A DNA stretch of 64,000 bases from [Archangium] primigenium (GCF_016904885.1 NZ_JADWYI010000001.1:7113224-7177223); one strand, 5' to 3'. Positions 3,549 through 26,756 are shown, numbered from the stretch's first letter. Notes: generated from the sequence alone by a model not told the origin. Numbers and translations: made by a program.

Positions 3549-3839
3549 GACGCGCGAGGCTGTAAAAAGCACACCCCCACCCTCAAAAAACCGGCCGCCC
3601 GGCTCGGATTTGGATTGCTCGGCGCGGTGCAATCTCGCGCTCGCGGCTACCCCACGGCACCCCACCGGACTCTCCGGCCGAAACTGTCCGACGACCCCCC
3701 GAAAAATCGGGGTGAAGGGCCCTACCCCGGCCTCTAAACGCCCGGAATCACATCCGGGGTGCCCGCCGGAGGGGGTGCGGAAAGGAGCAAAACGGCGCGC
3801 GCCACGCCCCTTCTGAGGGGTGTCACCTCGTCACCCACG

Positions 3840-4832
3840 ATGGAGCGCCCCATGTCGAAGCAGTCGAAGCCCGCCGCCCTCACCTCTCCCACCACCCCGG
3901 CCTACGTGCCCCCGCCCGAGCTCGTGGCCGCCGCCGAGGCGTCCCTCGGAGGCGCCTCGGAGCACGAGCGTTCCGACTCCGCCCGGGCGTACATGGCCTA
4001 CGGCCGCGCCACCGCGCACCGCTCGGCCGTCACCGGCAACGAGCTGCCCGGCTTCACCCTCTGCCCCACCCTCGTCCGGGCTGGCTGGCTCGAAGTGGTG
4101 CGCGAACTGCGCCCGGACGCCGAGGTGGAGCGGGCGCGGGCGGGGTTGGTGGCGGTGGCGAATTCGATGAACCAGGAGATCGCCGAGGCCCAGCAGAAGC
4201 TCGACGACCTCAATCAGGAGATCGCCACGCTCTCCCAGCAGAGGGACGACATGCGGGGCGTGGTGGTGAGGGGCATCAACGTCCGTGAGGGCAAGCCCCT
4301 CTTCGACGAGGTGGTGGTGAGTCTCGCGATCGCCACGGGCTCCGAGGCGATGGCCGACCAGCACGGCATCGTGGTCGTGGGGCACCGCGAGGAGGCGGAC
4401 GGCCTGCCCCACACGTACCTCCTGCAGGACCTGTCGCTCCAGGCCCCGGACCCGTCCGCCTGGGCGAAGGTGGCCGTGGATGCCGTGCACCGCTGGGCGC
4501 ACTGTGCTCCACCCCAGAAGGCGTACGTCCTCGCGGAGGAGAACACCGGGGGCGCCATGGTGGCGAACATCATCCACGCCGTGGATCCCTCGGTGACGGT
4601 GAAGACGGCGCGCATCCTCGCCACGTCGGAACTCGCCTCCTCGGTGGACGACAGCGAGGAGTGCCACATCGATCCCTTCCTCATGGGCATCAGCCAGATC
4701 TCCGCGGCGGCGAAGGACTTGGCCAAGGCCCAGCAGGACGGCCAGGGCGAGGTGGCCGCGCTCGTCACGACCACGGCCAAGGCGCTGCACGAGCGCGTGA
4801 AGGCGCTCGCCCTGCCCGCCTCCGAGCGCTGA
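3840..4832 (+). CDS. Terminase large-subunit nuclease-domain paralog with unrelated N-terminus; first catalytic Asp replaced
   Basis: C-terminal 170 aa align residue-by-residue with the C-terminus of the terminase at 5512..7050 (LLQDLSLQAP..AWAKVAV.AVHRW), but VSVDPATGE is VSLAIATGSE here. Confidence 0.5.
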   Translation: MERPMSKQSKPAALTSPTTPAYVPPPELVAAAEASLGGASEHERSDSARAYMAYGRATAHRSAVTGNELPGFTLCPTLVRAGWLEVVRELRPDAEVERARAGLVAVANSMNQEIAEAQQKLDDLNQEIATLSQQRDDMRGVVVRGINVREGKPLFDEVVVSLAIATGSEAMADQHGIVVVGHREEADGLPHTYLLQDLSLQAPDPSAWAKVAVDAVHRWAHCAPPQKAYVLAEENTGGAMVANIIHAVDPSVTVKTARILATSELASSVDDSEECHIDPFLMGISQISAAAKDLAKAQQDGQGEVAALVTTTAKALHERVKALALPASER

Positions 4833-4876
4833 TGCGCGCACCGGGGAGGAGGCGGTAGCACCCCTTCTCTCCGGGC

Positions 4877-5512
4877 ATGGCCCGGCCCAAGGGACTTCCG
4901 CCAGCGTTTGGAGGCGAGCCCTCGGACGGGCCTGGGGAGGACGCGCCCGAGCTGCCGGATCCACTGGCGGGCTACCATCCCCGGCCTGGCGCGCGCGGCC
5001 CGCGCACCTCCCTCACCCGGGCGATGATCCCCATCATCGCCCGGGTGCTCGCGCGCACCGGGGTGCAGCGCATCGCCGCGGCGAAGGCGGGCACCACCGA
5101 GGCCTGCCTGGGCAAGTGGCTGAGCCGGGGCCGGGACGCCGTGGAGCGCCGCAAGACGAGCCTCTACACCGAGCTGCTCTTCGCGTGCGAGGAGGCGTGG
5201 GCGCACCGCTACAGCCACCTCATCGAACTGGGCGAGCGCACGGTGGTGGACCGGCACGCCAACCCGAGATTCATCACCTGGCTCATGGGCGTCACCGCGC
5301 CCAAGCAATTCACCGTGCCGCGCGAGCCCGCCGCCCAGGCCCAGGGCCACGCGCTCGGCCCCGCCTTCGAGCTCGTGTCTCCCGAGGCCGCCGCCAAGGC
5401 AATCCACGAGAAGCTCCTGCGCTTCCTCGAGGAGGACGACAAGAGCCAGGTGCCCCCACCCACCGAGGAGCCCGCGCCGAGCCCTGACGGGGCCGCGCCG
5501 GGGGCCGGGTAG
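4877..5512 (+). CDS. Putative terminase small subunit / DNA-binding packaging protein
   Basis: 211-aa ORF immediately upstream of and overlapping (TAGTG) the terminase large subunit start. Confidence 0.4.
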   Translation: MARPKGLPPAFGGEPSDGPGEDAPELPDPLAGYHPRPGARGPRTSLTRAMIPIIARVLARTGVQRIAAAKAGTTEACLGKWLSRGRDAVERRKTSLYTELLFACEEAWAHRYSHLIELGERTVVDRHANPRFITWLMGVTAPKQFTVPREPAAQAQGHALGPAFELVSPEAAAKAIHEKLLRFLEEDDKSQVPPPTEEPAPSPDGAAPGAG

Positions 5513-7050
5513 TGGTGGCCTCGGCCGCCGTCCAGGAGGCGGGCGACAACCTCCTGGCCGGGCTCACCATCATCCGCCCGGAGACGCACGGCCGCTATTC
5601 GCTCTCCGAGCTCGCCGTGCGCAAGTTCCGCGCGCAGCTCGGCCGCGCGGGGCGGCTCGCGGCGAGCCCCTCCATCACCGAGCACCTGCGGGCCACGCAG
5701 GCCGAGGTGCTCGCCTGGCACTACGACCCCACGCTCTGGCGCCGCCCGGTGCAGACGCCGCCCGCGGGCGTCTGGCGCACTTGGTTCCTCCTGGGCGGGC
5801 GCGGCGCCGGCAAGACGTACGCCGGCAGCGTGGCCGTCCTCGAGGAGGCGATGGCGGACCCCGAGGCCCGCATCCTCATCGTCGGCCCCACCGACTCGGA
5901 GATTCGCAAGACGCAGTTGGAGGGGCCCAGCGGCATCCTCTCGCTCGCGCCGCCCTGGTTCCGCCCGGTGCACCGGCGCAGCAAGCGCACGCTCGACTTC
6001 CCCAACGGAGCCAAGGCCTTCTACGTCCCCGCGCAGAACCCGGACAAGTTGCGCGGGTACAACGTCTCGCTCGTCTGGGCGGACGAGGTGGTGGCCTGGA
6101 AGAAGTCCCCGCTGGAGGTGTACGCGGAATGCCGGCGCGTGGCGCGAATCCAGACGCCGCGCATGCGCGCGCTCGGCCTGCCCGCGCGCCTCATCATCAC
6201 CACCACGCCCCAGCCCACCCAGCTCTTCCGGGAGATTCTGGCGGACCGGGACGGCCTGGTGCTCGCGCGCAGCAGCACCTTCGACAACGCGGCCAACCTG
6301 GACGGCAAGTACCTCGCCTACGCGCGCCGGGTGCAGCACACCACCGAGGGCCGCCGGGAGTTCCTCGGCGAGCTCTTCTTCGCGCTCGACGCCTGCCTCT
6401 ACCGCAAGGTGGACTGGAATGCCTCGCGCGTGCCCTCGGTGGAGGCCATTGCTCCGCGGGAGGGCAAGGCGCTCTTCGACAAGGTGGTGGTGAGCGTCGA
6501 CCCCGCCACCGGCGAGAAGAAGGGCAGCGACTTGCACGGCGTGGTGGTGGAGGGCATCCGCGAGGAGGCGGACGGCCTGCTGCACTCCTACGTCCTGCAG
6601 GACTTGTCCCTCCAGGCCCCGGAGGCCTCGGCCTGGGCGAAGGTGGCCGTGGAGGCCGTGCACCGCTGGAAGCACCTGGCGCCGCCGCGGAAGACTTTCA
6701 TCTTCGCGGAGACGAACACCGGCGGCTCCATGGTCAAGCAGACCATCCGCACGGTGGACGCCAAGGTGCGGGTGAAGGGCCAGCGCGCCATGCAGTCCAA
6801 GGCCGAGCGCGCGGCGCCCGTCACGGCAATGGCCGAGGTGGGGCTCATCCACATGGTGGGCAAGCACCACAAGCTCGAGGAGCAGCTGGGCAAGTTCACC
6901 GGCCAGGACGGCGGCCACGGGCGGGATGACCGGGCGGACGCCTTCGCGTGGCCGGTGTTCCTCTACGTGTGCCCGAAGCGGCAGAACGCCGGCGTCGCCG
7001 GGCGCCCGGCCCAGGCGGAGGAGGACACGGACGCCGAGGACGACGAGTAG
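5512..7050 (+). CDS. Phage terminase large subunit
   Basis: Walker A GRGAGKT, Walker B VSLVWADEV, C-terminal RNaseH-like nuclease motifs; GTG start overlapping upstream stop. Confidence 0.85.
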   Translation: MVASAAVQEAGDNLLAGLTIIRPETHGRYSLSELAVRKFRAQLGRAGRLAASPSITEHLRATQAEVLAWHYDPTLWRRPVQTPPAGVWRTWFLLGGRGAGKTYAGSVAVLEEAMADPEARILIVGPTDSEIRKTQLEGPSGILSLAPPWFRPVHRRSKRTLDFPNGAKAFYVPAQNPDKLRGYNVSLVWADEVVAWKKSPLEVYAECRRVARIQTPRMRALGLPARLIITTTPQPTQLFREILADRDGLVLARSSTFDNAANLDGKYLAYARRVQHTTEGRREFLGELFFALDACLYRKVDWNASRVPSVEAIAPREGKALFDKVVVSVDPATGEKKGSDLHGVVVEGIREEADGLLHSYVLQDLSLQAPEASAWAKVAVEAVHRWKHLAPPRKTFIFAETNTGGSMVKQTIRTVDAKVRVKGQRAMQSKAERAAPVTAMAEVGLIHMVGKHHKLEEQLGKFTGQDGGHGRDDRADAFAWPVFLYVCPKRQNAGVAGRPAQAEEDTDAEDDE

Positions 7051-7052
7051 CC

Positions 7053-7076
7053 GCACCCCTTCTCCCCGGGCATGGC
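7053..7076 (+). promoter_or_regulatory. Conserved intercistronic motif CACCCCTTCTCCCCGGGCATGG (instance before portal gene); other instances at 4858..4881, 8437..8460, 13464..13486, 21364..21386, variants at 3801..3821 and 9277..9290
   Basis: Near-identical 20-22-mer ending in the start codon of seven prophage late genes. Confidence 0.45.
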
Positions 7077-8436
7077 CTCCCTCCGCTCGCGCTTCAAGGC
7101 CGCCCTCACGGGCCTGCTCCTCGGCCCCTCCGCGGGGCGCCCCCTCGTGCACACCCTGCCTCTCCTGCCCTTCTCCCCGCGGAGCGGCTCGCGCCAGGTG
7201 CTCGCCGCCTACCGGGAGAACGCGTGGCTGCAGGCGGTGGTGGACACGGTGGCCGAGGCCACGGCCACGCCCCGCTGGCGGGTGCTCCTCCCCGTCACCA
7301 GCAAGGGCAAGGGCCTCGCCCGCTCCCTCAAGGCCGTGGGCGCGCTCGAGCGGACGCGGGACGGACGCCTCTCCCGGCACAAGGCGCTCGCCCGGGGCGT
7401 GGAGCGGGGGGACCTGGTGGAACTCCACCAGCACGAGCTGCTCAACTTCCTGGACAGCCCCCACCCCCTTTTCACCGGCCGCGACCTGCGCAAGCTGCAG
7501 CAGGTGCACCTGGACCTGGTGGGCGAGACGTTCCTGTACCTGCGCCGCACCCTGGACGACGAGCGGCGCGTCGCGGGCTACGAGGTGTTGCCCCCGCACT
7601 GCGTGCACCAGACGCCCACCGACACGGGCACCCACTACGTCGTCACCTACAACCGCGCCGCCACCAGCGTCCTGCCCTCGGAGATTGTGTGGCTCAAGCG
7701 GTTGGATCCGGAGAACCCCTATGGCCGGGGCGTCGGCCGAGGCCTCGCCATGGGGGACGAGCTCGACACGGCCGAGGCCCTGCAGGTGGCGCGCAAGGCC
7801 ACCTTCCTCCGCGGAGGCCTGCCCGCCGCGGTGGTGGGCATTGACGAGGGGGGCGCCGGGGACGACAGGGCGGAGGAGATCGAGTCCGAGTACCAGGAGA
7901 AGTTCAACCGGCCCGAGGCCGCCGGGCGCGTCTGGTTCGTCAACGGCAAGGTGTCGCTCAGCCAGATTCAGCAGGACTTCCGCGCGCTGCAGATGGACGA
8001 GACGGAGAAGGGCCTGCGCGACTTCGTGCGGCAGTGCTTCAACGTGTCCCCCGAGCTGCTCGGCGACCTGACGAGCGCCAACCGCTCCACGAGCGAGGAG
8101 GCCAAGTACACGCTCGCGGAGTACGCCGTGCTTCCGCGCCTGGAGTTTCAGCGCAACCATTACCAGCTGCACGTGGTGCCGCGCATCGACCCCGACGCGC
8201 TGCTCGAGTACGAGGACCCGAGGCCGCAGAGCTGGGAGCGCACGCTGGCGGTGGTGACGTGCTCGCCCAACGAGGGCTTCACCTGGAACGAGGTGCGCGC
8301 CCTGGCGGGCTTCGCGCCGGACCCGTCGCTCAACGGCCGCCGCCCCCGTCCCCTGCCGGGCGCGATGCCGGTGCAGGACAAGCCCCAGGCGCCGAAGAAT
8401 CCCCCGCCCCCGCGCGGGCCCGCCAAGGCGGCGTGA
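7072..8436 (+). CDS. Phage portal protein
   Basis: 454-aa ORF directly after terminase; size and position typical of HK97-type portal. Confidence 0.65.
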   Translation: MASLRSRFKAALTGLLLGPSAGRPLVHTLPLLPFSPRSGSRQVLAAYRENAWLQAVVDTVAEATATPRWRVLLPVTSKGKGLARSLKAVGALERTRDGRLSRHKALARGVERGDLVELHQHELLNFLDSPHPLFTGRDLRKLQQVHLDLVGETFLYLRRTLDDERRVAGYEVLPPHCVHQTPTDTGTHYVVTYNRAATSVLPSEIVWLKRLDPENPYGRGVGRGLAMGDELDTAEALQVARKATFLRGGLPAAVVGIDEGGAGDDRAEEIESEYQEKFNRPEAAGRVWFVNGKVSLSQIQQDFRALQMDETEKGLRDFVRQCFNVSPELLGDLTSANRSTSEEAKYTLAEYAVLPRLEFQRNHYQLHVVPRIDPDALLEYEDPRPQSWERTLAVVTCSPNEGFTWNEVRALAGFAPDPSLNGRRPRPLPGAMPVQDKPQAPKNPPPPRGPAKAA

Positions 8437-8456
8437 GCCGCCACTTCTCCTCCGGC

Positions 8457-9275
8457 ATGACTCGCTCCGCCGCCGCTCGCCCCGCGCCCCCCGAGGACGC
8501 GTGCTTCAAGTCCCTCGGCCACCTCGTGAAGAAGAGCGAGGGCAGCAGCGGGACGCCTGTCTTCCGCATCAGCACCGCGGTGCTCGACCGACACAACGAC
8601 CGCGTGCCGCCAGAAGCCGTCAAGACGGAGAACTTCGAGAAGAACCCCGTCCTCCTCTGGAACCACGACGACCGCGTCCCGGCGATCGGCACGTGCAAGG
8701 TCTACCGCGAGGGGGACGAGTGGTTCATGGAGCCCACCTTCGACGAGCTCGACGAGCTGTCGAAGACGGTGGCGGCCAAGGTGAAGGCCGGCACCCTGCG
8801 CACCTGCAGCATCCGCTTCCGCTTCAAGGAGTTCGAGTTCAACGCCGAGGGCGGGCTCGACTACGCGGAGGTGGAACTGCTGGAGGTGTCGATCGTCAAC
8901 ATCCCCGCCAACCCCGAGGCCTACCGCGTGAAAGCCAACCAGCAGCCGAAGCCCAAGCAGAAGAACGAAGCCGCTCCCGAGGAGACGCCCGTCGAGGAGA
9001 CGAGCTCCAAGGGCCTCGCGCCCGAGGACTTGGAGGCGATTCGCGCCACCGTCACCGAGGCGATGGTGCCCGTCCTGGAGCAACTCGCCGCGCTCCAGTC
9101 CGCGCTCGCGGGCGACACCGCCCAGTCCGAGGACGGTGAGCCCGAGGAGCCGGTGGACGAGGAAGAGAAGAGCGAGGGGGACGACGAGGACGACGTGCAG
9201 CTCAGCGACGAGGACATGGAGGAGCTGAAGAACTTCCTCGCCCCCCCGACCCCGAAGGCGAAGCCGCGGAAGTAG
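8457..9275 (+). CDS. HK97-family prohead protease with acidic scaffold-like C-terminal extension
   Basis: Prohead protease (S78/U35) N-terminal domain pattern; C-terminus extremely acidic (EEPVDEEEKSEGDDEDD) like fused scaffolds. Confidence 0.6.
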   Translation: MTRSAAARPAPPEDACFKSLGHLVKKSEGSSGTPVFRISTAVLDRHNDRVPPEAVKTENFEKNPVLLWNHDDRVPAIGTCKVYREGDEWFMEPTFDELDELSKTVAAKVKAGTLRTCSIRFRFKEFEFNAEGGLDYAEVELLEVSIVNIPANPEAYRVKANQQPKPKQKNEAAPEETPVEETSSKGLAPEDLEAIRATVTEAMVPVLEQLAALQSALAGDTAQSEDGEPEEPVDEEEKSEGDDEDDVQLSDEDMEELKNFLAPPTPKAKPRK

Positions 9276-9340
9276 CCACACCCCTTTTCAACGACAGACA
9301 CCCCTGGCGCCTCCCCTGCGCCCCTCCCCTGGAGTACACC

Positions 9341-10210
9341 ATGTCGAAAGTCCCCAAGGCCCTGCAGAAGCTCGTCGACGCGAGTGTGCAGAAAGCCGTC
9401 GCGGCCGACCGCGCCCTCCGCACCCAAACCGCCCCCGCCGACGTCTCCGGCAAGGGGGCGGCGGGCAAGATCGACATGCGCACGGCCATCGGCTTGCGGC
9501 TGAAGAGCCTGTACATGAACCACCCCCTCTTGGGCATCCAGGCGAGCGACAGCGAGAAGGCCTGGGTGAAGAAGTCCGCCAGCGCCTACGAGGGCGTGTA
9601 CGGCCAGGGCGGCTCCCTCCTGCGTGAGGAGTACAGCTCGGAGATCATCGAGTTCCTCCGGCCCGCCACTGCGCTCCTGCGTGCGGGCGCCCGGACCCAG
9701 ACGTACGTCGGACGACTCACGATCGGCCGCCTCAACGGTGGCGCCGTGGCCCAATTCGTGTCGGAGGCGCAGGCGCCCACGGTGAGCGAGGTGAAGACGA
9801 GCGCCGTCGTGCTCGGCTCTCATAAGCTCATGGGGCTCTACGAGCCGAGCAATGACTTGCTCCGCAATCCGGACATCGACAGCGCAGGCATCCTCTCGGA
9901 CGATCTGTTCGCCGCCATGGGGGTTGCCTCGGACCAGGCGGGCCTGCTTGGCGACGGCACGGGCCCCAACCCCCTGGGGCTCCTGCACCAGGTGAAGACG
10001 GCCAACAAGGTGGATGGCGTGGCCATCACCAACGCCAACCGCAACAACGTCATCCGCTTCCTCGACAGCTTCGAGCACCGCGTGAAGTCCAGCAACCTGT
10101 CGTTGGAGGGCAACAAGCCCTTCTGGACGTTCTCCAGCGGCGTGGAGATGGCGCTCAAGGGACTGACAGCGGAGATCACGTGGCTTGAGGCTGAAAGCCA
10201 CAGGCTTTGA
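9341..10210 (+). pseudogene. Major capsid protein (HK97 fold), 5' portion; ORF runs into an IS630-family insertion
   Basis: Position after protease; sequence has HK97-MCP-like character; the reading frame ends inside sequence that encodes the transposase C-terminus on the other strand. Confidence 0.55.
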
Positions 10211-11177
10211 ACCATTGGGCCGCATCCGAGGCAGAAATGAGCAGCATGGCGTCCTCGACCGCCTGACGAAGTGCTGTGACGGTGCGCGCTTCTGCCGTCC
10301 GGAGCAATCCCTTGAGCTTGGACCATGCGAATTCAATGGGGTTGAGGTCGGGTGAATACGGAGGCAGGTAGAGCACCTGGCCTCCATGCTGCTCAATGAG
10401 GGCGATGGCTTCCTTTCGAAAGTGCGCCCCCGCTCTGTCCAACAAGACGATGTCTCCAGGCCGCAGCATCGTCAGGAGATAATGGCTGACGAAATGGAGG
10501 AAGACATCCCCAGTCGTGGCTCCCTCATTCATCATGACGGTTTCCAGCCCATCGAGACTGAGCGCGCCAATCATGCTCAGCACGGTGCCTCGATTGCGAG
10601 GGACAGCTTGCGCCACGCGTTGTCCCGTCGGGGCCCAGGCTCGTTCGCGCATCATGTCGATGGTGCAGCCCGCCTCGTCGATGCTCAACACCTTGGGAGT
10701 CGGAAGCTCGGGTTGTCGTTGGTGAAAGGCCTCTCGTTGGGCTTGGACGTCGGGTCGTTCGCGTTCGGTCGGGTAGCGGACTTTTTTTGAGCGTGTAGCC
10801 CAATCGCGTCAGCGTCCGGCCGATGGTTGCCACGCTCACTCGCACGCCTGTGCGCTCCGTCCACGCTCGCGCCATCTCGGCTCGGGTCCGGTCGGGTTGT
10901 TCATCGACCAGGCGACGAAAAGCGCTCAGCTCCCCATCGCCTATTAGGTGGGTTTGCCCACCCCCGTGCGGCCGCGGAGCAGGGCTTCCCGTCTCACGAG
11001 TGAGACGCATCCAGCGTTGGACCGTGGCCCTACCCACTCCGAAGCGACGTGCCAATTGCTTGGACGTCCCCTCTCCTTGCTGGAAGGCCTCAACCACCCG
11101 TTGCCTCAAGTCCATCGAGAGTGCTGTCGTTCCCATCGCTCCCGATCAACCCCTGGGCGCCTCAGCTCATTCGATTC
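10160..11177 (-). mobile_element. IS630-family insertion sequence (copy 1) inserted in the capsid gene; boundaries approximate
   Basis: Transposase ORFs fill the interval; imperfect terminal inverted repeat around ctgacagcggagatc (left) and gattcccgctgtgac (right). Confidence 0.6.
10176..11136 (-). CDS. IS630-family transposase (HTH ORF 10525..11136 plus DDE ORF 10176..10691, joined by frameshift or disrupted)
   Basis: N-terminal HTH (RFGVGRATVQRW) and C-terminal DDE region (YLPPYSPDLNPIEFAWSKLK) typical of IS630/Tc1. Confidence 0.7.
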
Positions 11178-11473
11178 CCGCTGTGACGTTCGACTCGGGC
11201 GGCTTCGTCTACCGCGACCAGTTGGAGCAGGGCAAACTCAACGGCAAGCCCGTGTTCATCACCGAGGCCTTCGGTGACAACCACCTCGTCTTCGGGCTCG
11301 CCAACCAGATCTACTTCGGCATGGACCTCAAGGGCGGAAAGAACATCCTTCTGGAGTTGAGCCAGCCGCGCTTCGCGGAGGACGTCACCACCATCAAGGC
11401 GATCACCTACATCGACTGGAAGCTCCGGCACGACACCGCGCTGGCCTACTCCAACAACGTCACCCTCAACTGA
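11177..11473 (+). pseudogene. Major capsid protein, 3' portion downstream of the IS
   Basis: Frame 2 continues with AVTFDSGGFVYRDQ...AITYIDWKLRHDTALAYSNNVTLN, consistent with an HK97 MCP C-terminus; same frame as the 5' part. Confidence 0.45.
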
Positions 11474-11510
11474 CACGCGGTCGCGCCTCAACCCCAGACA
11501 GGAGCACCAC

Positions 11511-11948: not shown

Positions 11949-12038
11949 CACGCCCCGCCCGCACTACACCCCGGGGAGGTGGCCCGCGCCCCGGGCCCCT
12001 CCCCGGTTCTCGTTTTGCCTCCTTGTTTGAGGTACCCC

Positions 12039-12710: not shown

Positions 12711-13036
12711 GTCTCTTCGGCGAGGACATGCGCGAGACGTTCCACGTGCGGCGCTTCCAGGGCATGGCGGACAACGGCCGCCGCGAGGCGTACGGCGAGC
12801 CGGAGGCGCACCCCTGCCGGTGGGAGCCCGGCGCGCGCCTGGTGCGCACGGCCGAGGGCAAGCAGCAGGTGTGCGAGGGCACGCTCTGGACTACCGCGCG
12901 CCTCACGCCCAAGGACTTGTTCTGGCTGCCGGGCAACTCGCCCGAGGACTACGGGGCCAGTCGCCGCGCGCTCAACGCCTACGAGCGCAAGGGCCTGGAG
13001 ACGGGGGAGTTCGACCACTCCGAGGTGGTGGTGTGA
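12707..13036 (+). CDS. Head closure / head-tail adaptor protein
   Basis: 109-aa ORF overlapping neighbours (ATGA), in a head-tail joining gene series. Confidence 0.35.
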   Translation: MSLFGEDMRETFHVRRFQGMADNGRREAYGEPEAHPCRWEPGARLVRTAEGKQQVCEGTLWTTARLTPKDLFWLPGNSPEDYGASRRALNAYERKGLETGEFDHSEVVV

Positions 13037-13455: not shown

Positions 13456-13480
13456 CCGCCCCGCGCCCCTTCTCCCGGGC

Positions 13481-13918
13481 ATGGGACGCGGCGCGCGCTT
13501 CAAGGTGAAGGTGGAGGTGGACAAGCGCCTCCTGCTCTTGCTGCGCGACAACCCCGAGGTGGCGCTCAAGGCCATGGACACGCCGCTGCACGCGGCCACC
13601 CGGCGCATTCTCGACATCTCCCTCTTCCTCGTGCCCCGCGGCGGTGCGCCGGACGACCCGGTGGACCTGGCGGACACCGCCTTCCTCTCCGGGCCCCTGC
13701 ACAACCCCGAGAAGAAGAGCACCACCTGGACGTGCGGCTACGCGCACCCCGCCGCCGGCGCCATCCACCAGGGCTTCCACTGGGGCGCGGCGCTGCTCGC
13801 GCCCCCGGACTTCCTGCGCCGCGCCACCAAGGGCGTGCGCGCCGAGCTCAAGAAGCCCGTGGGCAAGGCGCTCATGGGGGCCATCGCTTCTCTCACCCCG
13901 AAAGGACACCGCCCATGA
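13481..13918 (+). CDS. Phage structural protein (tail terminator-like)
   Basis: 145 aa; preceded by conserved CCCCTTCTCCCGGGCATG motif; overlaps next gene by ATGA. Confidence 0.3.
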   Translation: MGRGARFKVKVEVDKRLLLLLRDNPEVALKAMDTPLHAATRRILDISLFLVPRGGAPDDPVDLADTAFLSGPLHNPEKKSTTWTCGYAHPAAGAIHQGFHWGAALLAPPDFLRRATKGVRAELKKPVGKALMGAIASLTPKGHRP

Positions 13919-14349: not shown

Positions 14350-14384
14350 CGCTTCCCCCCCCACGCCGCACCTGAAAGGCAACC

Positions 14385-16991: not shown

Positions 16992-17016
16992 CTGAATGGC
17001 GCCCCTTGTCTGATGC

Positions 17017-19647
17017 ATGTCAGGGGCCCTGAAGGTCGGTGATGTCTTCGTCGCAGTGAGCGCCTCACTGGGCGAGTTCTCCAAGAGCATGGACAGGCTC
17101 TTGAAGGATGTCGAAAAAGCAGCGGACGGGATCGCCAAGTCGATGCAGGCGGCCGCCGATGCGGTCTCCGGTTTCTCGGAGAACCTCCTCGCCGTCGCTG
17201 GTGTCGCCGCCGCCGCCGTGGCTGGCGCGGCGGAGACGAGTGAGGTGGCCCAGAAGGCCAATGACGAGTTAAAGCGGAGCATCCTTCAACTTTCTCGGGA
17301 CGTGGGGACGGCTTTCCTGCCTCTCGTCAGGGAACTCACGCGAGGCGTCCGAACGCTTACGGCCACGTGGCGCGGGCTCTCGACTGAAACCCGCGCCAGT
17401 GTCGTCGCCTTCGTGCGACACGCCGCGATTGTTGGCGCGGTCGGGATGGCGATGAGTCGTGCCCTGCTCGTCGGGAAGGCGCTGGCGGAGGGGGTAGTCG
17501 TCCTCACGAAACTCACGCGTGCGATGGGGCCCGGTGTGGTGGATAGGCTCGCAGACGTCACCAAGAGTATGGGCGCGGCGCTCGCCCGGTTCGGCGCCTT
17601 CATGCGCGTGCCTGTCGGAACCCATGTCCATGGAATTTCGTCAGGACTGGCTGCGCTCAAGAGCCAAATCCGCCAGCTCCCAGGGATGGCTTCTGACCTG
17701 CTCAAGGCGTTTCGGGGAATGGTGCCAACCCTGACGGCGCTCCTTGTCCCCGTCCTCGCGGTTGCAGCCGCCGTCGGTGCTCTTGTCCTTTTGGCGGGCT
17801 CGATCTACGGCGCATGGAACGACGCTTCCACGGGCCTCAAATCGGCCGTTGAGCAGCTTGGTGTCGCCATTGTCGAATGGGCCGAAATGCTCAGACTCAA
17901 GCTCGCCTCGGCGCTTGGATGGTTCGTCGACCACACCATCAAGGTGGCCAAAACCATTCGGGACGTCTTTGTGGCGATGTTCGATTCATTCAGAGACTTC
18001 GCCCTTGGAATGGCTACAGTGTTGTTCGAGGTTATCGCGGAAAAGATGCGGCGCATCGCGGCGGTCGCCGAAGCTGCCGCCCGTGTCGCGGGCAAGGACA
18101 CACTCGCTGACCACCTCGCAGCGGTCCAGAATCTAACCGCCACAGGCATTGCCAAGTTCGTCTCCAAGACGCTCGCCGCCACGACCGATGCGGCACGACG
18201 GGGGATGGATGAATCCGTCGAGAAGCTCGCCGAAATGAGCAACGCTGTTGTCGAGTCTGGAAAAAGCGGAGTGGGTGCGCTGAAGGAGGGGCTTGAGTTC
18301 GGCATTGGCAAGGCCTGGGATGGAACGAAGATGATGGCCGCCGATCTCACCAAGACGCTGGGCGCTGCCGAGTGGGCTACCGCTCTCAAGAATTGGCTCG
18401 GCAAGATATTGGGTGATCCGGACGAGGTCGGGGAAGTCCCCAGGCTTGAGAAAGACCCCGAGCTCGCCGGTGGACATGACTACAGTGACTTTCAGAAAGT
18501 CCGGGAGTTGGGACGCCAAGAGGTAACGCCGATCCAACGCGCACTCCGAGACATGTCTGAGGCGTACGCCAAGGCTCTTGAAGAAGCGACGCAAGCAGCG
18601 CGAGCGGAATTGGTTCATCGGGCGACTGCCGCAATGGGGGCGATCAAGGACAGCATCGATGTCTTTGCGAACGGTGTCGCAGCCACAGGGAGCACTCTTG
18701 GAGGTATTGCGGCAGCTCTTGGTGACATGCTCATTAAATCGGAGGGATTTGCCACGCTGATGGGCATGGTGACCACTGCGCTCCAACAAGCCGCCAATGT
18801 CGTTGGGGCTGTTCTGGATCCGCTTCAAGGCATTGTTGGAGCCGTGGCGTCGATCTTGGGCGGACTAATGAGCGTGTTGACGCCAGTCCTGGGTGTCGTT
18901 GTGGCGCTCGTGCAACCCCTTGCTCCAGCGTTAATTCTTCTCGGTGATGCGTTGAGCGCGTTGGCGCCGGTGTTCGAGGCGCTGGCGCGTGTCGTCACGG
19001 CGATCGCCGAGGTAGTCCTGTGGCCTCTGATGAAGGGCATTTGGTATGCACTCAAGGGGGTATCCCTCGCCATCATGGGCGTGGTGTGGGGCCTGGGAAA
19101 GGCGTGGAACGGCATCGTCTCCGCGGTGCAGTGGGTGTTCCGAAAGCTGGGGAACATCGAGATCCTCGGTGGCAAGCCGCTCGACTTCCTCAATGACTGG
19201 GCGGACAGCATGGAGTCCGCGAAAGCGCCGGTGGACGAACTCGCCGACAGCATGGCGAAGCTCCGGGACATGTCCATGGAGGAGGCTCAGGCCAAGGCCA
19301 ACGCCACGGCGGAGCAGCTCAAGAACACCCAGGCCCTGCAGAACGCCACCGAGGCCCTCACCAACGTGCCGCCGGCCTGGCGGATTGCCCAGCGACGCTA
19401 CCTCGCGCAGGATCCTCAAGCGGGCGCGAGCGGGCCCCCCATACCCGTGCAGCAGGGCCCTGCGGCTCCGGCGCCGAGCCCCGTGCAGCAGGCGCCGGCG
19501 GCGCCCGCGCCCACCCAGAGCCAGAACTTCATCCAGTTCGTCCTGTCCGGGGACATGGAGGCGTGGCTGGAGCAGGCCAAGCGCCAGAAGCGAGAGGCGG
19601 CGCTCCGCCTCGGCCGGGGCTTCGGCGGCCTGGGGTTCGGCTCATGA
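17017..19647 (+). CDS. Tail tape measure protein
   Basis: 876-aa Ala/Gly-rich helical protein after the G/GT genes; hydrophobic central segments. Confidence 0.8.
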   Translation: MSGALKVGDVFVAVSASLGEFSKSMDRLLKDVEKAADGIAKSMQAAADAVSGFSENLLAVAGVAAAAVAGAAETSEVAQKANDELKRSILQLSRDVGTAFLPLVRELTRGVRTLTATWRGLSTETRASVVAFVRHAAIVGAVGMAMSRALLVGKALAEGVVVLTKLTRAMGPGVVDRLADVTKSMGAALARFGAFMRVPVGTHVHGISSGLAALKSQIRQLPGMASDLLKAFRGMVPTLTALLVPVLAVAAAVGALVLLAGSIYGAWNDASTGLKSAVEQLGVAIVEWAEMLRLKLASALGWFVDHTIKVAKTIRDVFVAMFDSFRDFALGMATVLFEVIAEKMRRIAAVAEAAARVAGKDTLADHLAAVQNLTATGIAKFVSKTLAATTDAARRGMDESVEKLAEMSNAVVESGKSGVGALKEGLEFGIGKAWDGTKMMAADLTKTLGAAEWATALKNWLGKILGDPDEVGEVPRLEKDPELAGGHDYSDFQKVRELGRQEVTPIQRALRDMSEAYAKALEEATQAARAELVHRATAAMGAIKDSIDVFANGVAATGSTLGGIAAALGDMLIKSEGFATLMGMVTTALQQAANVVGAVLDPLQGIVGAVASILGGLMSVLTPVLGVVVALVQPLAPALILLGDALSALAPVFEALARVVTAIAEVVLWPLMKGIWYALKGVSLAIMGVVWGLGKAWNGIVSAVQWVFRKLGNIEILGGKPLDFLNDWADSMESAKAPVDELADSMAKLRDMSMEEAQAKANATAEQLKNTQALQNATEALTNVPPAWRIAQRRYLAQDPQAGASGPPIPVQQGPAAPAPSPVQQAPAAPAPTQSQNFIQFVLSGDMEAWLEQAKRQKREAALRLGRGFGGLGFGS

Positions 19648-20459: not shown

Positions 20460-20506
20460 AGCAGCAGTGGCGTGTGCGCTGCTTCAGCGTCAATCCCCTG
20501 TACCTA

Positions 20507-21334
20507 TTATGGCACCAAACCCTTGACGGATGACAGGTCGATCGGATCCAGGCGCTGCCCATCTCGGCTAAAGTACAAAGCACTCGGTAGCGAGTCGAAA
20601 TACAAGTACAGGCTATGAGCATGGTCGAGCGGACTGCCGTCACATCCCACTGTCCTCATCGGACCTAGAGTGGTGCCGATTATGTCATCGACTACAGCGA
20701 ACATCGCGGATGCACCGAACGCTGAGTTTGGGGGCCTAACACTAAATAATTTGAGTCGATCTTTTTCGGCCTCATTCACGCAAGCACGCCAGATATTGAT
20801 CGTCTCAAGACGAGGTTGGATTTCGAGAGCAAAAACGTATTTCTCACCAGGCGGAGATCGGTGTACCCGCATCTTCAGTGGACCGAGATTTCCGAGATCC
20901 ACTTGGTAGGCCTGCCCATTGACAGCTGCAACAACCTGCTTAACCCAATTAGGATCCCTCAACATCACGCCGAGGCGAGTAGTTAGCTTGGCGGGCATCT
21001 GCCGCGGCTCTATCTTGTGAATGAGCGCTATTAACGGAAACGCCACCCCGCGAGTACTGAGCGCGCGATCCAAGGCGTAGTTGAGCTCCTCCTGACATGG
21101 GTTGCTTGTAAGGCTGTCTGCTGTCACAACGACCGCATATGCGTCACTTCGTTCTGGGTTAACGATTTCAGACGCAATGTTGTCCCATATTCGCTGTCCC
21201 GCAGGAAGCTGCCTTCGGTCGAAGTGAACCTCAAGCTCTCCAGACTTCTCAAGCTCGCTTATGATGTAGTCCACATCCTGATCGCGGTTATCCGCCCAAG
21301 CGTAAGTCACCCAAAGTCGTTTTTTGGTGGTCAT
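20507..21334 (-). CDS. TIR-domain protein with uncharacterised C-terminal domain (moron)
   Basis: N-terminal RLWVTYAWADNRDQDVDYIISELEKSG...AVVVTADSLTSNPCQEELNYAL matches TIR beta-A/alpha-A and the conserved Glu motif; local GC about 50% against 70% in flanks; antisense to tail genes. Confidence 0.6.
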   Translation of the reverse strand: MTTKKRLWVTYAWADNRDQDVDYIISELEKSGELEVHFDRRQLPAGQRIWDNIASEIVNPERSDAYAVVVTADSLTSNPCQEELNYALDRALSTRGVAFPLIALIHKIEPRQMPAKLTTRLGVMLRDPNWVKQVVAAVNGQAYQVDLGNLGPLKMRVHRSPPGEKYVFALEIQPRLETINIWRACVNEAEKDRLKLFSVRPPNSAFGASAMFAVVDDIIGTTLGPMRTVGCDGSPLDHAHSLYLYFDSLPSALYFSRDGQRLDPIDLSSVKGLVP

Positions 21335-21382
21335 GGTCGCTCATTGTATCGCCAAATATGGCCCCGTCACTTCTCCGAGGGC

Positions 21383-23827
21383 ATGCGAACCCTTACGGAA
21401 GCGGAGCGGGCGGCCCTCTCTTGTCGGGCCGGGTATTCCACGTGGCACCGGGTGCTGCTGTTCGGCCCGGGCAACCGGTGGTGGGACTTGGGCGCGCTGC
21501 CCGTGGGCGAGCGCGCCACGGACTTCCTCGAGGAGGCCACGCTCGACGACTCCCAGGACGCGCCGGTGGCCCAGTTGCGCGTGCGCCTCAAGCGCCAGGT
21601 GCTGCTCGCCTCCCTCGCGCCGCTCATGGCCGAGAGCCCCCTCAACAACCTCGGCGGCGCGTACGAGCCGCTCGTGCGCACCGGGCGCCTGGTGGTGCTG
21701 GAGGTGGCCCTCGCTCCGCTGGGCCAGCAACCCCATGCGGTGGACTGGCAGGAGCTCTTCCGCGGGCGGGTGGACACGCCCACGGACGCGGGGGAGACGC
21801 TGGAGTTCGGCGCGCGGGACTACTCGGGCCTGCTCCAGGACTGTTTCATCGAGGTGGAGCGGCCCTACTCCTCCGACGCCGGCACGCCCGTGCAGGCCGT
21901 CATGCAGCAAATTCTCTCCGACAACGGCCAGGGCGCCTTCGGCCTCTACACGCCGGTGGACCCCGAGTGGGCGGTGGGCCGCTACCTGCAGAAGAAGGAG
22001 CCAGTGCTCGAGGCCCTGCGCGCGCTCGCGGGCCAGCTCGGCGCGGACGTGCGCTACCGCTGGAGCCCGGTGGCCCAGGCCTTCGCCCTCACCTTCGCCG
22101 CGCCCCAGCGCGAGGCCACCGAGCCCGTGTGGCACTTCCTCGCCGAGGACTACCGCGCCCTGCCGGACGTGGAAATGCCCATGGACGAGGTGCGCAACGC
22201 GGTGACGGGCTACTTCTACGACTCGCTCGACAGGGACGCCGCCGGGCAGCCGAAGCTCAAGCGGGTGGATCGGGACGCGGGCACCGCCTCGCTCCAGGCC
22301 TACGGGCGCCGGTGGATGGAGATTGTCCTGGCGGCGACGGACAACATCGACACCGAACCGGAGATGGTGCGCCTGCTCGAGTCGGCCATGAGCGACTTGG
22401 GCCAGCCGCCGCTGGGGCTCTCCTTCGAGGTGGCGTGCCACCCGGGCCTGGAGCTCGGCGACGTGGTGGCCCTCGCGCCCAACGGCGTGCAGTGGAGCAG
22501 CACCCAGACGGGCGCGGTGGTGGCGCTCACGCACACCTTCACCCGGGACAAGGCGACGACGAAGGTGGTGGTGCGCGGCAAGCCCTCCCTCGCGCCGCGG
22601 CAGTGGCTGCAGCTGGAGACGGGCCGTCCGGGCCAGGCGCCGGCCGCGCCGTACACCGGGCCGCGCCCGCCCACGGTGGTGTCCGCGAGCGCCCTGCCCC
22701 AGGGACTCGCCGTCTCCGTCGCCCCGGCCACCGGCGGCGCGGACACGGCCGAGTACGAGGTGCACGTGAGCACCACCTCGGGCTTCGCCCCGGACACGAG
22801 CTACCCCTCCTCCACGCTCAAGGAGGTGGGGGCGCGCACGCGCTTCGAGCTGCAGGGCCTCACCCCGGGCCGCACCTACTACGTGCGCATGGTGGCCCGG
22901 GACGCCGCGGGCAACCGGGGCGCGGCCTCTCCGGAGGTGGCCCTCTCCCCGAGCTACCTCTCCCCGGGCGCGCTGGCGACGCTCGTGTCCTACGGCGCTC
23001 TGCCCCTCAATGGGGACTTCGAGGCCCAGGCGGACCCGGCGGGCCCGCCGGACGGCAGCTACATGCTCCAGGGCACCTGGGGCGTGGACGCGGTAGTGGA
23101 CACCTCCACGGCCTTCGCGGGCACCCGGTGCGTGCGCCTGCGCGCGAGCGGCACGCGTCTGGGCCTGCAGGCCTTCGTGGCCCGGCCCGGCGAGCGCCTC
23201 GCGCTCAAGGCCCATGCCTACAGCCAGGTGCAGGCCTACGCCGAGCTGCAGGTGGTGTGGCTCGACAGGCAGCTCACCCCCGTGGGCGAGCCCGTCACCG
23301 TCTGGGGAGACTACCTCCAGGCCAACACCTGGACGACGCTGGGCAACTACCTCACCGTGCCCGCGGGAGCGCGCGTGGCCCGCCTGTCGGTGCGCGCCGC
23401 CGGCAACTACCCCGACGCCTTCGTCTGGTTCGACTCGGTGTCCGCGGTGCCGGGCGTGTCCCTCGCCGTCCCCTGGCAGCGCCTGCGCCACCCCTCCCTT
23501 GGCGGCGGCGGCAACGTGAGCGACTACCTCGGCAACTGGAAGCCCAATCCCGTGCGCCCGGTGCGCTGGCGGGTGAATGCCCTGGGCGAGCTGGAGCTCC
23601 AGGGCAGCCTCTATGACGGCCAGCCCGGCACCGAGGCCTTCCGCCTGCCGGGCGTGGCGCCCGCGGGCTACACCTCGCCGGCGGACCCTGCCCGCTTCGT
23701 CGCGGCGGCGGGCCCCACGGGCCGGGCCACCGTCTCGGTGCACTCAGTGGGCACGGACGCGGCCTTCGTCATCACCGTGGACAACGCCTACGTGGTGCTC
23801 GACGGCGTGCGCTACCCGCTCGCGTGA
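21383..23827 (+). CDS. Tail fibre / host-specificity protein with fibronectin type III domain
   Basis: 814 aa; FN3-like segment (EYEVHVSTTSGFAPDTSYPSS...LTPGRTYYVRMVARDAAGNRG); preceded by conserved motif; last large tail gene. Confidence 0.55.
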   Translation: MRTLTEAERAALSCRAGYSTWHRVLLFGPGNRWWDLGALPVGERATDFLEEATLDDSQDAPVAQLRVRLKRQVLLASLAPLMAESPLNNLGGAYEPLVRTGRLVVLEVALAPLGQQPHAVDWQELFRGRVDTPTDAGETLEFGARDYSGLLQDCFIEVERPYSSDAGTPVQAVMQQILSDNGQGAFGLYTPVDPEWAVGRYLQKKEPVLEALRALAGQLGADVRYRWSPVAQAFALTFAAPQREATEPVWHFLAEDYRALPDVEMPMDEVRNAVTGYFYDSLDRDAAGQPKLKRVDRDAGTASLQAYGRRWMEIVLAATDNIDTEPEMVRLLESAMSDLGQPPLGLSFEVACHPGLELGDVVALAPNGVQWSSTQTGAVVALTHTFTRDKATTKVVVRGKPSLAPRQWLQLETGRPGQAPAAPYTGPRPPTVVSASALPQGLAVSVAPATGGADTAEYEVHVSTTSGFAPDTSYPSSTLKEVGARTRFELQGLTPGRTYYVRMVARDAAGNRGAASPEVALSPSYLSPGALATLVSYGALPLNGDFEAQADPAGPPDGSYMLQGTWGVDAVVDTSTAFAGTRCVRLRASGTRLGLQAFVARPGERLALKAHAYSQVQAYAELQVVWLDRQLTPVGEPVTVWGDYLQANTWTTLGNYLTVPAGARVARLSVRAAGNYPDAFVWFDSVSAVPGVSLAVPWQRLRHPSLGGGGNVSDYLGNWKPNPVRPVRWRVNALGELELQGSLYDGQPGTEAFRLPGVAPAGYTSPADPARFVAAAGPTGRATVSVHSVGTDAAFVITVDNAYVVLDGVRYPLA

Positions 23828-26754: not shown

Positions 26755-26756
26755 CC

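Follow-up and report, generated by a model that had tools for sequence, protein, structure and literature searches.

A conserved sequence on the start codons of late genes

The stretch analyzed here, called the window below, comprises 64,000 nucleotides of [Archangium] primigenium DNA and includes a 26-kb prophage late region. In a myxobacterial prophage family with its own sigma factor, many late genes have a 21-base conserved sequence, CGCCCCTTCT-N4-GGGC-ATG, on the start codon; the true consensus of this motif reads C G C C C C T T C T S N N N G G G C A T G. The motif occurs in two forms. In class 1, which is the majority and the best conserved form, the ATG lies exactly 7 or 8 nt 3′ of CTTCT and the gene has no Shine-Dalgarno (SD) sequence; eight starts in the window belong to it (2934 on the minus strand, 2970, 4877, 7072, 8457, 13481, 17017 and 21383). 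Class 2 consists of block 1 alone, 30 to 60 nt 5′ of an SD-led gene, and is found at 918, 3805 and 9279. The sites described below lie on the plus strand unless stated otherwise.

The class 2 site at 918..928 (CACCCCTTCTG, block 1 only; PWM score of 14.5) precedes an SD-bearing lipoprotein-like gene, the ATG of which (977) is 49 nt downstream. Two class 1 sites then abut back to back as a divergent pair. The one on the minus strand (2932..2952, CGCCCCTTCTCGGCGGGCATG; PWM score of 18.0 and an exact pattern match) sits on the start codon at 2934 of ORF 2623-2934(-), and this gene and its start are kept, with the same motif, in the related loci L003 and L070. Its plus-strand partner (2953..2972, CGCCGCTTCTCCGGGCCATG, spacing 7), detected by the PWM scan, marks the start of a sce7726-family gene (2970-3548; NCBIfam NF033832, E=1.9e-41), whose homologue in L020 also has a motif variant 5′ of its ATG. 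The first late gene (3852-4832; ATG at 3852) has an SD, and the class 2 site at 3805..3815 (CGCCCCTTCTG; PWM score of 17.0) lies within its conserved non-coding leader; L003 and L070 have a conserved, orthologous region.

Class 1 sites were located at the starts of the small terminase gene (4859..4879; gene 4877-5512) and the portal gene (7054..7074; gene 7072-8436) by 22-mer and looser-core pattern searches, and at the start of the prohead protease gene (8439..8459; gene 8457-9275) by PWM and pattern searches. The portal site occupies the whole gap after the large terminase stop codon and is conserved in L001, L009, L014, L023, L060 and L080; sites orthologous to that of the protease gene were found in L001, L009, L023, L056 and L061. 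Right after the protease stop codon lies a class 2 variant, CACCCCTTTTC (9279..9289; PWM score of 13.7), 52 nt 5′ of the ATG (9341) of the capsid gene, which has a GGAG SD. The CCCCTTTT variant of this site recurs at class 1 sites in L100, L101 and L104. A 145-aa tail-region gene (13481-13918), which comes after the head-tail connector genes, starts on a class 1 site with spacing 7 (13464..13483; PWM score of 18.0) that has orthologues in L100 (19595) and L101 (20108). The gene at 17017-19647, with tape-measure PHROG matches, starts on the class 1 variant CGCCCCTTGTCTGATGCATG (17000..17019; PWM score of 12.9), and the motif is present at tape-measure orthologues with the N-terminus MSGALKVGDVF in L023, L100, L102 and L103. 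The site of the tail-fibre-like gene (21365..21385; gene 21383-23827), found by pattern search, is 48 bp away from a divergent TIR-domain gene and has orthologues in L100 (13700), L101 (15081), L102-L104 and L107.

An earlier note on this DNA had described a start-linked 22-nt motif at several of these places. The motif exists there, but its copies are less alike than claimed and the coordinates were 1 nt low. The claim of only one or two substitutions holds for two copies: at up to 3 mismatches, the quoted 22-mer matched only at 4859 (1 mismatch) and 7054 (0), with a chance expectation of 0.01. It fails for 8438, 13464 and 21365, where alignment by hand gave about 5 differences, one deletion plus one substitution, and about 6 differences, respectively. 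The looser core CMCTTCTCNNNNGGCATG gave 5 matches versus 0.00 expected (100 shuffles). The supposed divergent variants at 3801 and 9277 do contain the first block (CGCCCCTTCT at 3805 and CACCCCTTTTC at 9279) but represent the separate class 2, 38 to 50 nt upstream of SD-bearing genes. The divergent pair at 2932-2952(-)/2953-2972(+), the site at 17000-17019 and the class 2 site at 918 had been missed. The names given to the portal, protease, capsid and tail-fibre-like genes agree with our assignments, that of the small terminase is weakly supported (PHROG, E=2.6e-4), and protein family searches gave no support for the name terminase-nuclease paralog for the gene at 3852-4832. As had been noted, the motif fills intergenic gaps, and before the starts at 7072, 8457 and 13481 it makes up the whole gap.

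Form of the motif

The information content of the motif is confined to positions -18 to +3, nothing 5′ of -19 is conserved, and k-mer and positional searches upstream of the motif revealed no further signal; the motif is thus a single block without a -35 element. Its distance from the start codon is sharply defined. Among 105 unique sites, the spacing between CTTCT and ATG was 7 nt in 19 and 8 nt in 47 (66 of the 105), and spacings of 5, 6, 9 or 10 nt did not occur. A C at -1 was present in 95% of the sites. Starts were ATG and GTG in a ratio of 43:6 among sites found without an ATG-containing search pattern, with orthologous sites not being independent; for comparison, GTG makes up 34% of the starts in phage Mx8 and 20% of those of host genes.

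The motif was rejected as a Shine-Dalgarno site, which would require a purine-rich tract complementary to the 16S rRNA 3′ end (CCUCC) 5 to 10 nt upstream. The SD position (-13..-8) of class 1 sites is occupied by CTTCTS, and the sole G run (-4..-2) is too near the ATG, so the view that the motif is not a canonical ribosome-binding site was correct. SD-led genes of the same elements carry GGAG at about -12 to -8. Upstream stop codons lie 2 to 12 nt 5′ of the class 1 motif and none of 34 upstream ORFs overlaps it, and 40 of 74 class 1 sites, including those of divergent and operon-first genes, have no detectable upstream ORF within 120 nt.

Distribution and late-gene specificity

Orthologous late genes have kept the motif across more than 30 related prophage loci, which belong to Archangium, Cystobacter and Corallococcus. 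The early genes of the C. fuscus and A. violaceum prophages are all SD-led and none has the motif, which is found in these prophages at tail genes only. At a PWM score of at least 13, there were 8 hits in the 26-kb late region of the window, compared to 2 in its other 38 kb, 2 in 49.5 kb of Mx8 and 1 in 63.6 kb of host DNA. The motif was absent from the non-late 38 kb of the window, from the starts of 55 host genes in 63.5 kb and from about 100 kb of host DNA. The search of Mx8 proposed in the earlier note likewise found it before none of the 85 annotated genes. The comparisons with Mx8, host DNA and early genes confirm that the motif is phage- and late-specific and not a generic host feature. 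Furthermore, SD and motif interchange at orthologues: the gene at 25250 is SD-led in the window and has the motif in L003, L017 and L070.

Location at gene boundaries, and the presence of an own copy at the sce7726-family gene in two different contexts, would fit a recombination scar, as had been proposed, or a sequence at module boundaries, either of which would drive mosaicism, and also a generic host start context. However, the motif strictly follows the orientation of the downstream gene, is locked to its ATG, and is absent from the host, Mx8, early-gene and non-late comparisons given above. In addition, it is kept at orthologous junctions while the flanking proteins have diverged to 50-60% identity, which points to selection on the sequence and makes these readings very unlikely.

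A sigma-family protein and a Zn-ribbon protein

A candidate trans-acting factor for the motif is the 328-aa product of a minus-strand gene at 24113..25099, identified by profile and structure searches as a divergent sigma-70-family protein. Its own family matches were weak (Pfam Sigma70_r2, E=0.005; TIGR02937, E=0.011). A profile of 19 homologues gave 16 matches in the PDB, all of them sigma factors, with FliA (8.7e-5) and RpoS (1.5e-4) as the best and regions 2-4 matched; the profile also matches group 3 sigma factors, RpoH included. When the AF2 model was compared with the PDB using Foldseek, all top 50 matches were sigma chains.

A divergent sigma-70-family protein, together with a small Zn-ribbon protein to which it is coupled, is encoded in every element examined. 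All of the 17 sigma-bearing loci, 7 contigs among them found independently of the motif, have at least one class 1 motif, a co-occurrence that is confounded by the shared ancestry of the elements. Mx8 has no class 1 motif. The sigma gene of L101 follows RusA and is the last of the early operon, and that of L100 is also the last; in L078, the translation reads as a RusA-like stretch 5′ of the sigma gene. Late regulators classically lie at the end of the early operon. In the window, the Zn-ribbon gene (23832..24116, minus strand) encodes a 94-aa double Zn-ribbon protein and is conserved together with the sigma gene, the stop codon of which overlaps its GTG start (GTGA). Family and fold searches with the Zn-ribbon protein gave no informative match.

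A putative late promoter for leaderless mRNAs

We infer, with a probability of about 50%, that the motif is a compact single-block late promoter that is read by the phage sigma factor and produces leaderless mRNAs. The anatomy, late-gene specificity and conservation of the motif, its absence from host and early genes and its co-occurrence with a sigma-family gene were observed, whereas the reading of the motif by this sigma factor and the transcript start positions are predicted. RNA polymerase with the prophage's own sigma-70-family factor would recognize the motif, possibly assisted by the adjacent Zn-ribbon protein. Block CGCCCCTTCT would act as an extended -10 element, with a core, CCCCTTCT, like the sigma-32 -10 element CCCCATNT; the G-rich stretch, which ends in C(-1)A(+1), would serve as discriminator and start site. 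Class 1 transcripts would begin at the A of the ATG or 1 nt upstream of it and would thus be leaderless; at class 2 sites, the same promoter would give a 30- to 60-nt leader with an ordinary SD. A leaderless promoter would account for the absence of an SD, the fixed spacing of 7 to 8 nt, the ATG preference and the back-to-back siting of divergent copies. The divergent pair at 2932-2952(-)/2953-2972(+) leaves no space between the two coding regions for another upstream promoter. The lack of a common RNA structure among class 1 sites, described below, also favours a promoter. Among the three options in the earlier note, a late regulator binding site comes closest to this promoter.

Phage sigma factors that read a single element are known. 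The gp36 protein of phiEco32 reads one short element, AATGTA, centred at -11.5 without a -35 element (PMC12276001), and the T4 late promoters read by gp55 are a further precedent (PMC2988020). As in these systems, the present elements encode a sigma-family protein and carry one short block near -10 without a -35 element, in many copies before late genes and also inside operons, and early and host genes lack the block. Unlike in these systems, the motif is GC-rich and pyrimidine-cored, the phages are temperate and their hosts are myxobacteria, and recognition by the sigma factor is predicted. The fixed position of the present block on the start codon would also make the transcripts leaderless, and leaderless late transcripts are not mentioned in either paper (PMC12276001 and PMC2988020).

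The sigma-32 -10 consensus is CCCCATNT (PMC6687850), and the dnaK P1 scaffold has CCCC at -15..-12 and a start at C(-1)A(+1) (PMC10216364; positions counted in this analysis). The motif similarly shows a CCCC run followed by a T-containing tetramer, and CCCCTTCT agrees with CCCCATNT at 6 of 7 specified positions (the eighth is N), the conserved A(-11) being replaced by T. Relative to the A of the ATG, CCCC lies at -15..-12 for spacing 7 and at -16..-13 for spacing 8; the spacing-7 class has the same distance from CCCC to C(-1)A(+1) as dnaK P1, and sigma-32 geometry predicts a transcription start on the A of the ATG. In contrast to sigma-32 promoters, nothing is conserved about 14 bp upstream of CCCC, where the -35 element CTTGAA would lie, and the phage protein is a distant relative that is equally close to FliA and RpoS.

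Promoters of leaderless genes, for example in Actinobacteria and Deinococcus, have a -10 box at a fixed distance of 6 to 8 nt from the ATG. The present motif likewise is a conserved non-SD sequence at a fixed short distance from a favoured ATG, with no SD. However, it differs from the housekeeping TANNNT box and occurs in a single class of phage genes, and its leaderless starts are predicted.

Some observations count against a promoter. The stretch that would have to open (TTCTSNNNGGGC) is rich in GC for a promoter, there is no -35 element although the C-terminal part of the sigma protein resembles region 4, and leaderless translation in these hosts is undocumented in the searchable literature. 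The lack of overlap with upstream ORFs (0 of 34) counts against a purely DNA-level element, which needs no such gap. In addition, CCUUCU and the downstream SD are predicted to form a hairpin with contiguous, family-specific stems at 7 of the 16 class 2 sites, which come from 4 independent families. This pairing implies that transcripts include block 1 and that it acts in the RNA, at least where transcription reads through, and it agrees with the earlier remark that the core resembles the anti-SD.

Alternative readings at the RNA level

The conserved block could mainly be the cis anti-SD arm of coupling hairpins. CCUUCU would pair with the following gene's SD, and a ribosome terminating at the stop codon a few nucleotides upstream would melt the hairpin, so that translation of neighbouring late genes is coupled; class 1 would then comprise degenerate or derived forms. 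The whole SD pairs with block 1 in the minimum-free-energy fold of the 7 class 2 sites, the adjoining stems are family-specific (e.g., CCUUCUGAGUC/GACUCAGGAGG and CUUCUGCGUGGUGC/GCACCACGCAGGAG), and the upstream stop codon lies 1 to 7 nt before the block in 14 of the 22 class 2 sites with a detectable upstream ORF. We regard this as improbable. The class 1 majority, which is also best conserved, has no SD to sequester, and structure prediction around its sites, as recommended in the earlier note, did not reveal a common fold: a GCCC/GGGC stem is possible but its changes are uncompensated, fold z-scores range from -3.1 to +1.3 with differing structures, and complementarity to the upstream sequence is not in excess. 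Moreover, this reading accounts neither for the conserved CGCC on the 5′ side of the pairing core nor for the GGGC block, and half of the class 2 families sequester the SD otherwise or not at all.

A possible, if somewhat unlikely, alternative is that the transcribed motif, CGCCCCUUCU-N4-GGGC-AUG, is an SD-independent translation-initiation signal. The reader would be the ribosome, e.g., protein S1 on the pyrimidine tract, or a late protein of the phage, for instance the Zn-ribbon protein, and the factor would recruit ribosomes to, or gate, the adjacent AUG of selected late genes. Consistent with this, the motif lies in the position of a ribosome-binding site, ATG included, with fixed spacing and a favoured ATG; upstream ORFs never overlap it; it swaps with the SD at orthologues of the gene at 25250; and a conserved Zn-finger protein is co-encoded. 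On the other side, block 1 of class 2 lies far from an SD-led start where ribosome recruitment is unnecessary, two adjacent spacings only are tighter than is usual for ribosome-binding elements, the abutting divergent pair would require promoters within both coding regions, and the Zn-ribbon protein lacks an informative fold match. Nor are we aware of a mechanism through which a tract resembling the anti-SD would promote initiation. The translational coupling or enhancer element of the earlier note survives as a live rival of the promoter, weakened by the sites at divergent and operon-first genes, the lack of a shared RNA structure and an ATG spacing far sharper than is usual for an SD. Rather unlikely, in our view, is a combined form in which the motif is a late-specific SD-independent signal and its pyrimidine tract doubles as a cis anti-SD that masks the SDs of other late genes; if true, it would constitute a phage-encoded translational regulon of a previously undescribed type.

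A role as an RNA processing site is very unlikely. In this reading, an endoribonuclease of the host or the phage would cleave polycistronic late mRNA at UU in a GC-rich context, and the monocistronic products would have very short leaders. In favour of it, the motif lies between genes and is specific to one strand and to late genes, its A/U content is limited to the single stretch UUCU, and cleavage of GGAG in intergenic regions by T4 RegB is a precedent for sequence-specific cutting. However, family searches of the element's proteins found no candidate nuclease, divergent and operon-first sites require no processing, and the ATG bias and the conserved C(-1) would be unexplained.

The start-associated sequences (SAS) of Cluster K mycobacteriophages offer a parallel that favours SD-independent initiation in sharing start association, ATG bias, orientation and absence from the host (PMC3203893). 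They are 13-bp GGGATAGGAGCCC repeats with a true SD core in the non-structural arm, with an ATG bias of 80/93, a single orientation and no occurrence in the host (PMC3203893). Both they and the present motif are short asymmetric repeats a few nucleotides before the starts of a subset of genes, restricted to one genome arm (PMC3203893), and the initiation role considered above for the motif would be analogous to that proposed for the SAS. Unlike the SAS, the present motif is pyrimidine-cored, has no SD or AGGAG, and is found in the structural (late) genes.

Gene content of the prophage

The prophage-like element spans roughly positions 900-26000 of the window (GC content 68.5%), and GC3 frame analysis identified the plus strand as the coding strand of its late region. 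The late genes on this strand are a small terminase (4877-5512, with a weak PHROG match, E = 2.6e-4), a large terminase (5512-7050), a portal (7072-8436), an S78 protease (8457-9275), a capsid gene (from 9341), head-tail connector genes (12039-13455), a tape measure (17017-19647) and a tail-fibre-like gene with an fn3 domain (21383-23827). Searches of sequenced phages returned remote portal matches only, none of them from a Myxococcus phage, and thus no close relative was found.

The major capsid gene is seemingly split. The stretch 9341-10210 matches the first half of capsid profiles, and an ORF in the same frame (10823-11473) matches their C-terminal part. The two parts are separated by a segment of lower GC content, in which a DDE_3 (IS630-like) transposase ORF is encoded on the other strand (10176-10691, E = 1e-29); a search for intron-like RNA families there gave none. 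Because the capsid gene appears to be split by this transposase-bearing segment, the prophage is probably defective. A low-GC TIR-domain gene (TIR_2, E = 4e-11) at 20507-21334(-), reversed within the tail module and immediately before the tail-fibre gene, has the appearance of a moron of the defence type.

Anatomy of the start-linked motif

The earlier note had described a 22-nt motif before the late genes whose copies differed by one or two substitutions. The copies at 4859 and 7054 matched the 22-mer with at most three mismatches (0.01 expected), whereas the other cited copies were more diverged and one contained an indel; the motif family is nonetheless clearly real. The sequence CMCTTCTCNNNNGGCATG was found five times against 0.00 expected, and a weight matrix (PWM) of block 1, the first part of the motif including the CTTCT core, gave 11 sites in the late region. 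Sites overlooked before include a variant at 17000 before the tape-measure gene, a block-1-only site at 918, and a divergent pair at 2932-2952(-) and 2953-2972(+), which abut back to back and fill the entire gap between both coding regions.

Related loci were collected by three routes: a Corallococcus prophage with a 55% identical portal, about 25 high-GC IMG/VR prophage fragments retrieved by the motif pattern, and loci retrieved via a sigma-like gene. The logo of 58 unique sites read C-18 G C C C C T T C T S N N N G G G C-1 A T G, with C at position -1 in 95% of sites and no conservation upstream of -19. Two classes of sites were distinguished. At class 1 sites, the motif runs into the ATG and the Shine-Dalgarno sequence (SD) is absent; the spacing from CTTCT to ATG is 7 nt in 19 and 8 nt in 47 of the 105 unique sites, and ATG is absent at neighbouring offsets. 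At class 2 sites, block 1 is followed by a looser G-rich stretch, and the gene downstream begins 30-60 nt further on and is led by a conventional GGAG SD; the supposed divergent variants at 3801 and 9277 both belong here. When sites that had been found through an ATG-containing pattern were left aside, ATG and GTG starts stood at 43:6, compared to 34% GTG starts in phage Mx8 and 20% in host genes. No -35 element appeared in the logo, k-mer enrichment or positional composition.

Several further elements accompany the motif. In several class 2 leaders, belonging to different genes, the GGAG SD is closely preceded by a second recurring element, CGCAGTCC(C) (loci L001, L003, L009, L013, L056, L070 and L076, and weakly at window position 3830). 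Directly upstream of one class 1 motif family, before ATGACAACC / ATGAGCGCC genes, we observed a sigma-54-promoter-like sequence, TGGCATGGCGGGCCGCT, with GG and GC 12 nt apart (L076, L078, L080, L084, L089, L001 and L020). A sce7726-family gene (2970-3548; NF033832, E = 1.9e-41) is seemingly inserted between genes that adjoin divergently in L003 and L070, and brings its own class 1 motif both in the window and in L020, which amounts to cassette-like behaviour. The non-coding stretch of about 300 bp upstream of the first late gene (3549-3850) has counterparts in L003 (~9075-9185) and L070. The 60 nt directly before its class 2 site are kept in related prophages, with a consensus of roughly AATCAC..CGGGG...GGAGGGGGTGC.GAAA.G.GCAAAACGGCGC, and the stretch may harbour a cos site, an operator or the principal control region for the late genes.

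Restriction to late genes

Orthologous small terminase, portal, protease, tail, tape-measure and tail-fibre genes keep the motif, with their proteins diverged to 50-60% identity. In the complete prophages of Cystobacter fuscus and Archangium violaceum, the motif occurs only at tail genes, and the early genes are all SD-led, none carrying it. The motif was not found in Myxococcus phage Mx8 (49.5 kb, same GC content), nor at any start codon of the 55 genes called in 63.5 kb from three Archangiaceae chromosomes. At a PWM score of at least 13, the 26-kb late region contained 8 matches, as opposed to 2 in 49.5 kb of Mx8, 1 in 63.6 kb of host DNA and 2 in the remaining 38 kb of the window. The absence from the sampled host start codons and from Mx8, and the few PWM matches in the controls, argue on this sample against a generic host feature, the outcome that the earlier note had set against its own proposal; the candidate was rejected, as about 100 kb of host DNA did not show the motif. 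That the motif reflects host context, or is a recombination scar, is hardly credible.

A sigma-like protein and its Zn-ribbon partner

The ORF at 24113-25099(-) gave weak matches as a single sequence (Pfam Sigma70_r2, E = 0.005; TIGR02937, E = 0.011). A profile of 19 homologues searched against the PDB matched sigma factors only, across regions 2-4, with FliA (8.7e-5) and RpoS (1.5e-4) best and RpoH, SigF and the ECF factor SigE also matched. The top 50 Foldseek matches of its AlphaFold model (pLDDT 72) were likewise sigma chains only. Judged from these profile and model comparisons, the ORF is a divergent sigma-70-family protein and a candidate trans-acting factor. In L101 the sigma gene follows RusA as the last gene of the early operon, in L100 it likewise ends this operon, and in L078 a RusA-like stretch precedes it (translation read by eye); such a place is where a late regulator is encoded. 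The stop codon of the sigma gene and the start codon of a conserved gene overlap; the latter encodes a 94-aa double Zn-ribbon protein, for which Pfam, PDB sequences and a fold search gave no match. Class 1 motifs were present in all 17 sigma-bearing loci examined, including seven contigs found independently of the motif. This co-occurrence is supportive but does not count as independent evidence, because the elements are related.

Behaviour at the RNA level

The likeness of the pyrimidine tract to the anti-SD, pointed out in the earlier note, was apt. In minimum-free-energy folds of class 2 sites, CCUUCU pairs with the downstream AGGAGG in 7 of 16 cases from four independent families; this helix forms the foot of a longer stem, the inner portion of which varies from family to family. 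Given this pairing in the predicted folds, block 1 is able to serve as a cis anti-SD when transcripts read through it, and at some sites it does so. The same pairing would favour a main role as an anti-SD arm for coupling. However, 40 of the 74 class 1 sites have no co-directional upstream ORF within 120 nt, so translational coupling cannot be the general function, and we consider such an arm improbable as the main one. At the other 34 sites, the upstream ORFs all terminate before the motif, 2-12 nt away, without any overlap.

This avoidance, together with the class 2 hairpins, is also what could be expected of an element acting in RNA, by SD-independent initiation or by binding a regulator. 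Against it, class 1 contexts share neither a fold nor a compensated stem. The eight sites in the window gave unrelated structures (z-scores -3.1 to +1.3), and a GCCC...GGGC mini-hairpin closing on the AUG was rejected since one-sided changes were never compensated. An RNA-level element of this kind seems rather unlikely, and its narrower version, a late-gene-specific initiation signal based on the anti-SD-like tract, is to be doubted slightly more. An RNA processing site, which would also act on the transcript, is very unlikely. Pairing of block 1 with a purine tract within the 43 nt upstream was no stronger than in controls (mean -6.16 versus -6.0 kcal/mol, p = 0.27), a conserved short upstream ORF from the GTG of class 2 sites was rejected on inspection because its frames were inconsistent between families, and an Rfam search for known RNA families gave one tRNA and nothing else.

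The motif as a putative late promoter

We propose, with a probability of about 0.5 and by analogy with known promoters, that the motif is a compact late promoter for the phage sigma factor. The core CCCCTTCT resembles the -10 element of sigma-32, CCCCATNT (PMC6687850). In the dnaK P1 scaffold, CCCC lies at -15 to -12, with the start site at C(-1)A(+1) (PMC10216364; positions counted for this analysis), and in the motif CCCC lies at -15 to -12 (spacing 7) or -16 to -13 (spacing 8) relative to the A of the ATG. Since this distance and C(-1) match the dnaK P1 geometry, transcription would start on the A of the ATG or on the preceding base, and the mRNA would therefore be leaderless. A leaderless mRNA would explain the missing SD, the two-value spacing and the ATG bias. 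The sigma-promoter model would also account for the lack of a -35 element, the restriction to late genes, the abutting divergent pair and the class 2 sites. The latter would be the same promoter giving an mRNA with a leader, and their SD-masking hairpins might, as a speculative corollary, form only in read-through transcripts. Promoters without a -35 element have precedents in phiEco32 gp36 (PMC12276001) and the T4 late promoters (PMC2988020). However, the stretch that would need to melt is GC-rich, the sigma protein seems to retain region 4 although no -35 is visible, and the class 2 hairpins and non-overlapping ORFs point to use in RNA. The earlier observation is partly confirmed and its interpretation partly supported.

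Functionally, the motif looks like the single-element late promoters of phage sigma factors, joined to the signature of leaderless genes that is known in other bacteria of high GC content. Of the sequence features described so far, the start-associated sequence of Cluster K mycobacteriophages comes closest; it shares with the motif the start association, ATG bias, single orientation and absence from the host, but it contains a true SD and is located in the non-structural arm (PMC3203893). A literature search on the motif or on myxophage late promoters found nothing relevant, and the present motif is not described in the literature searched.

If the promoter reading holds, many compact promoters specific to the sigma factor drive the late genes in a family of temperate phages that is widespread among myxobacteria (Archangium, Cystobacter, Corallococcus and relatives), and the late mRNAs are leaderless. 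The motif would then be a portable 21-bp expression signal that moves with genes such as the sce7726-family gene, would offer a working rule by which the start codons of late genes can be called in such GC-rich genomes, and could provide an orthogonal sigma/promoter pair for myxobacterial genetic engineering. If it acts in RNA instead, it would represent a new SD-independent initiation mechanism. Under either reading it is a usable marker of this prophage family.

Neighbouring elements

Beyond the prophage, two tyrosine-integrase ORFs face each other at 26718-28358(+) and 27991-29616(-), their longest forms overlapping. Next come a DUF3987 helicase/primase-like gene (29985-31373(-)) and a tRNA gene (37775-37860(-)). 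The paired integrases, the DUF3987 gene and the tRNA gene suggest that 26718-37860 is a second integrative element beside a tRNA, or a composite island. Within it, an isolated strong block-1 match outside the late region, CGCCCCTTCTT (PWM 16.1) at 36425-36435(-), has no ATG at class 1 distance and may be a chance match or a class 2 site. A giant ORF of 4089 aa with very high GC3 (49348-61617(-)) has a CT-rich leader, CCCCTTTCTTTTTCGCGAGGCTTTCTCTTCATG, which is superficially motif-like but does not fit the motif. An IS3-family element at 42830-44043 has its orfA and orfB arranged for the customary -1 frameshift and shares 99% identity with an annotated transposase of A. primigenium.
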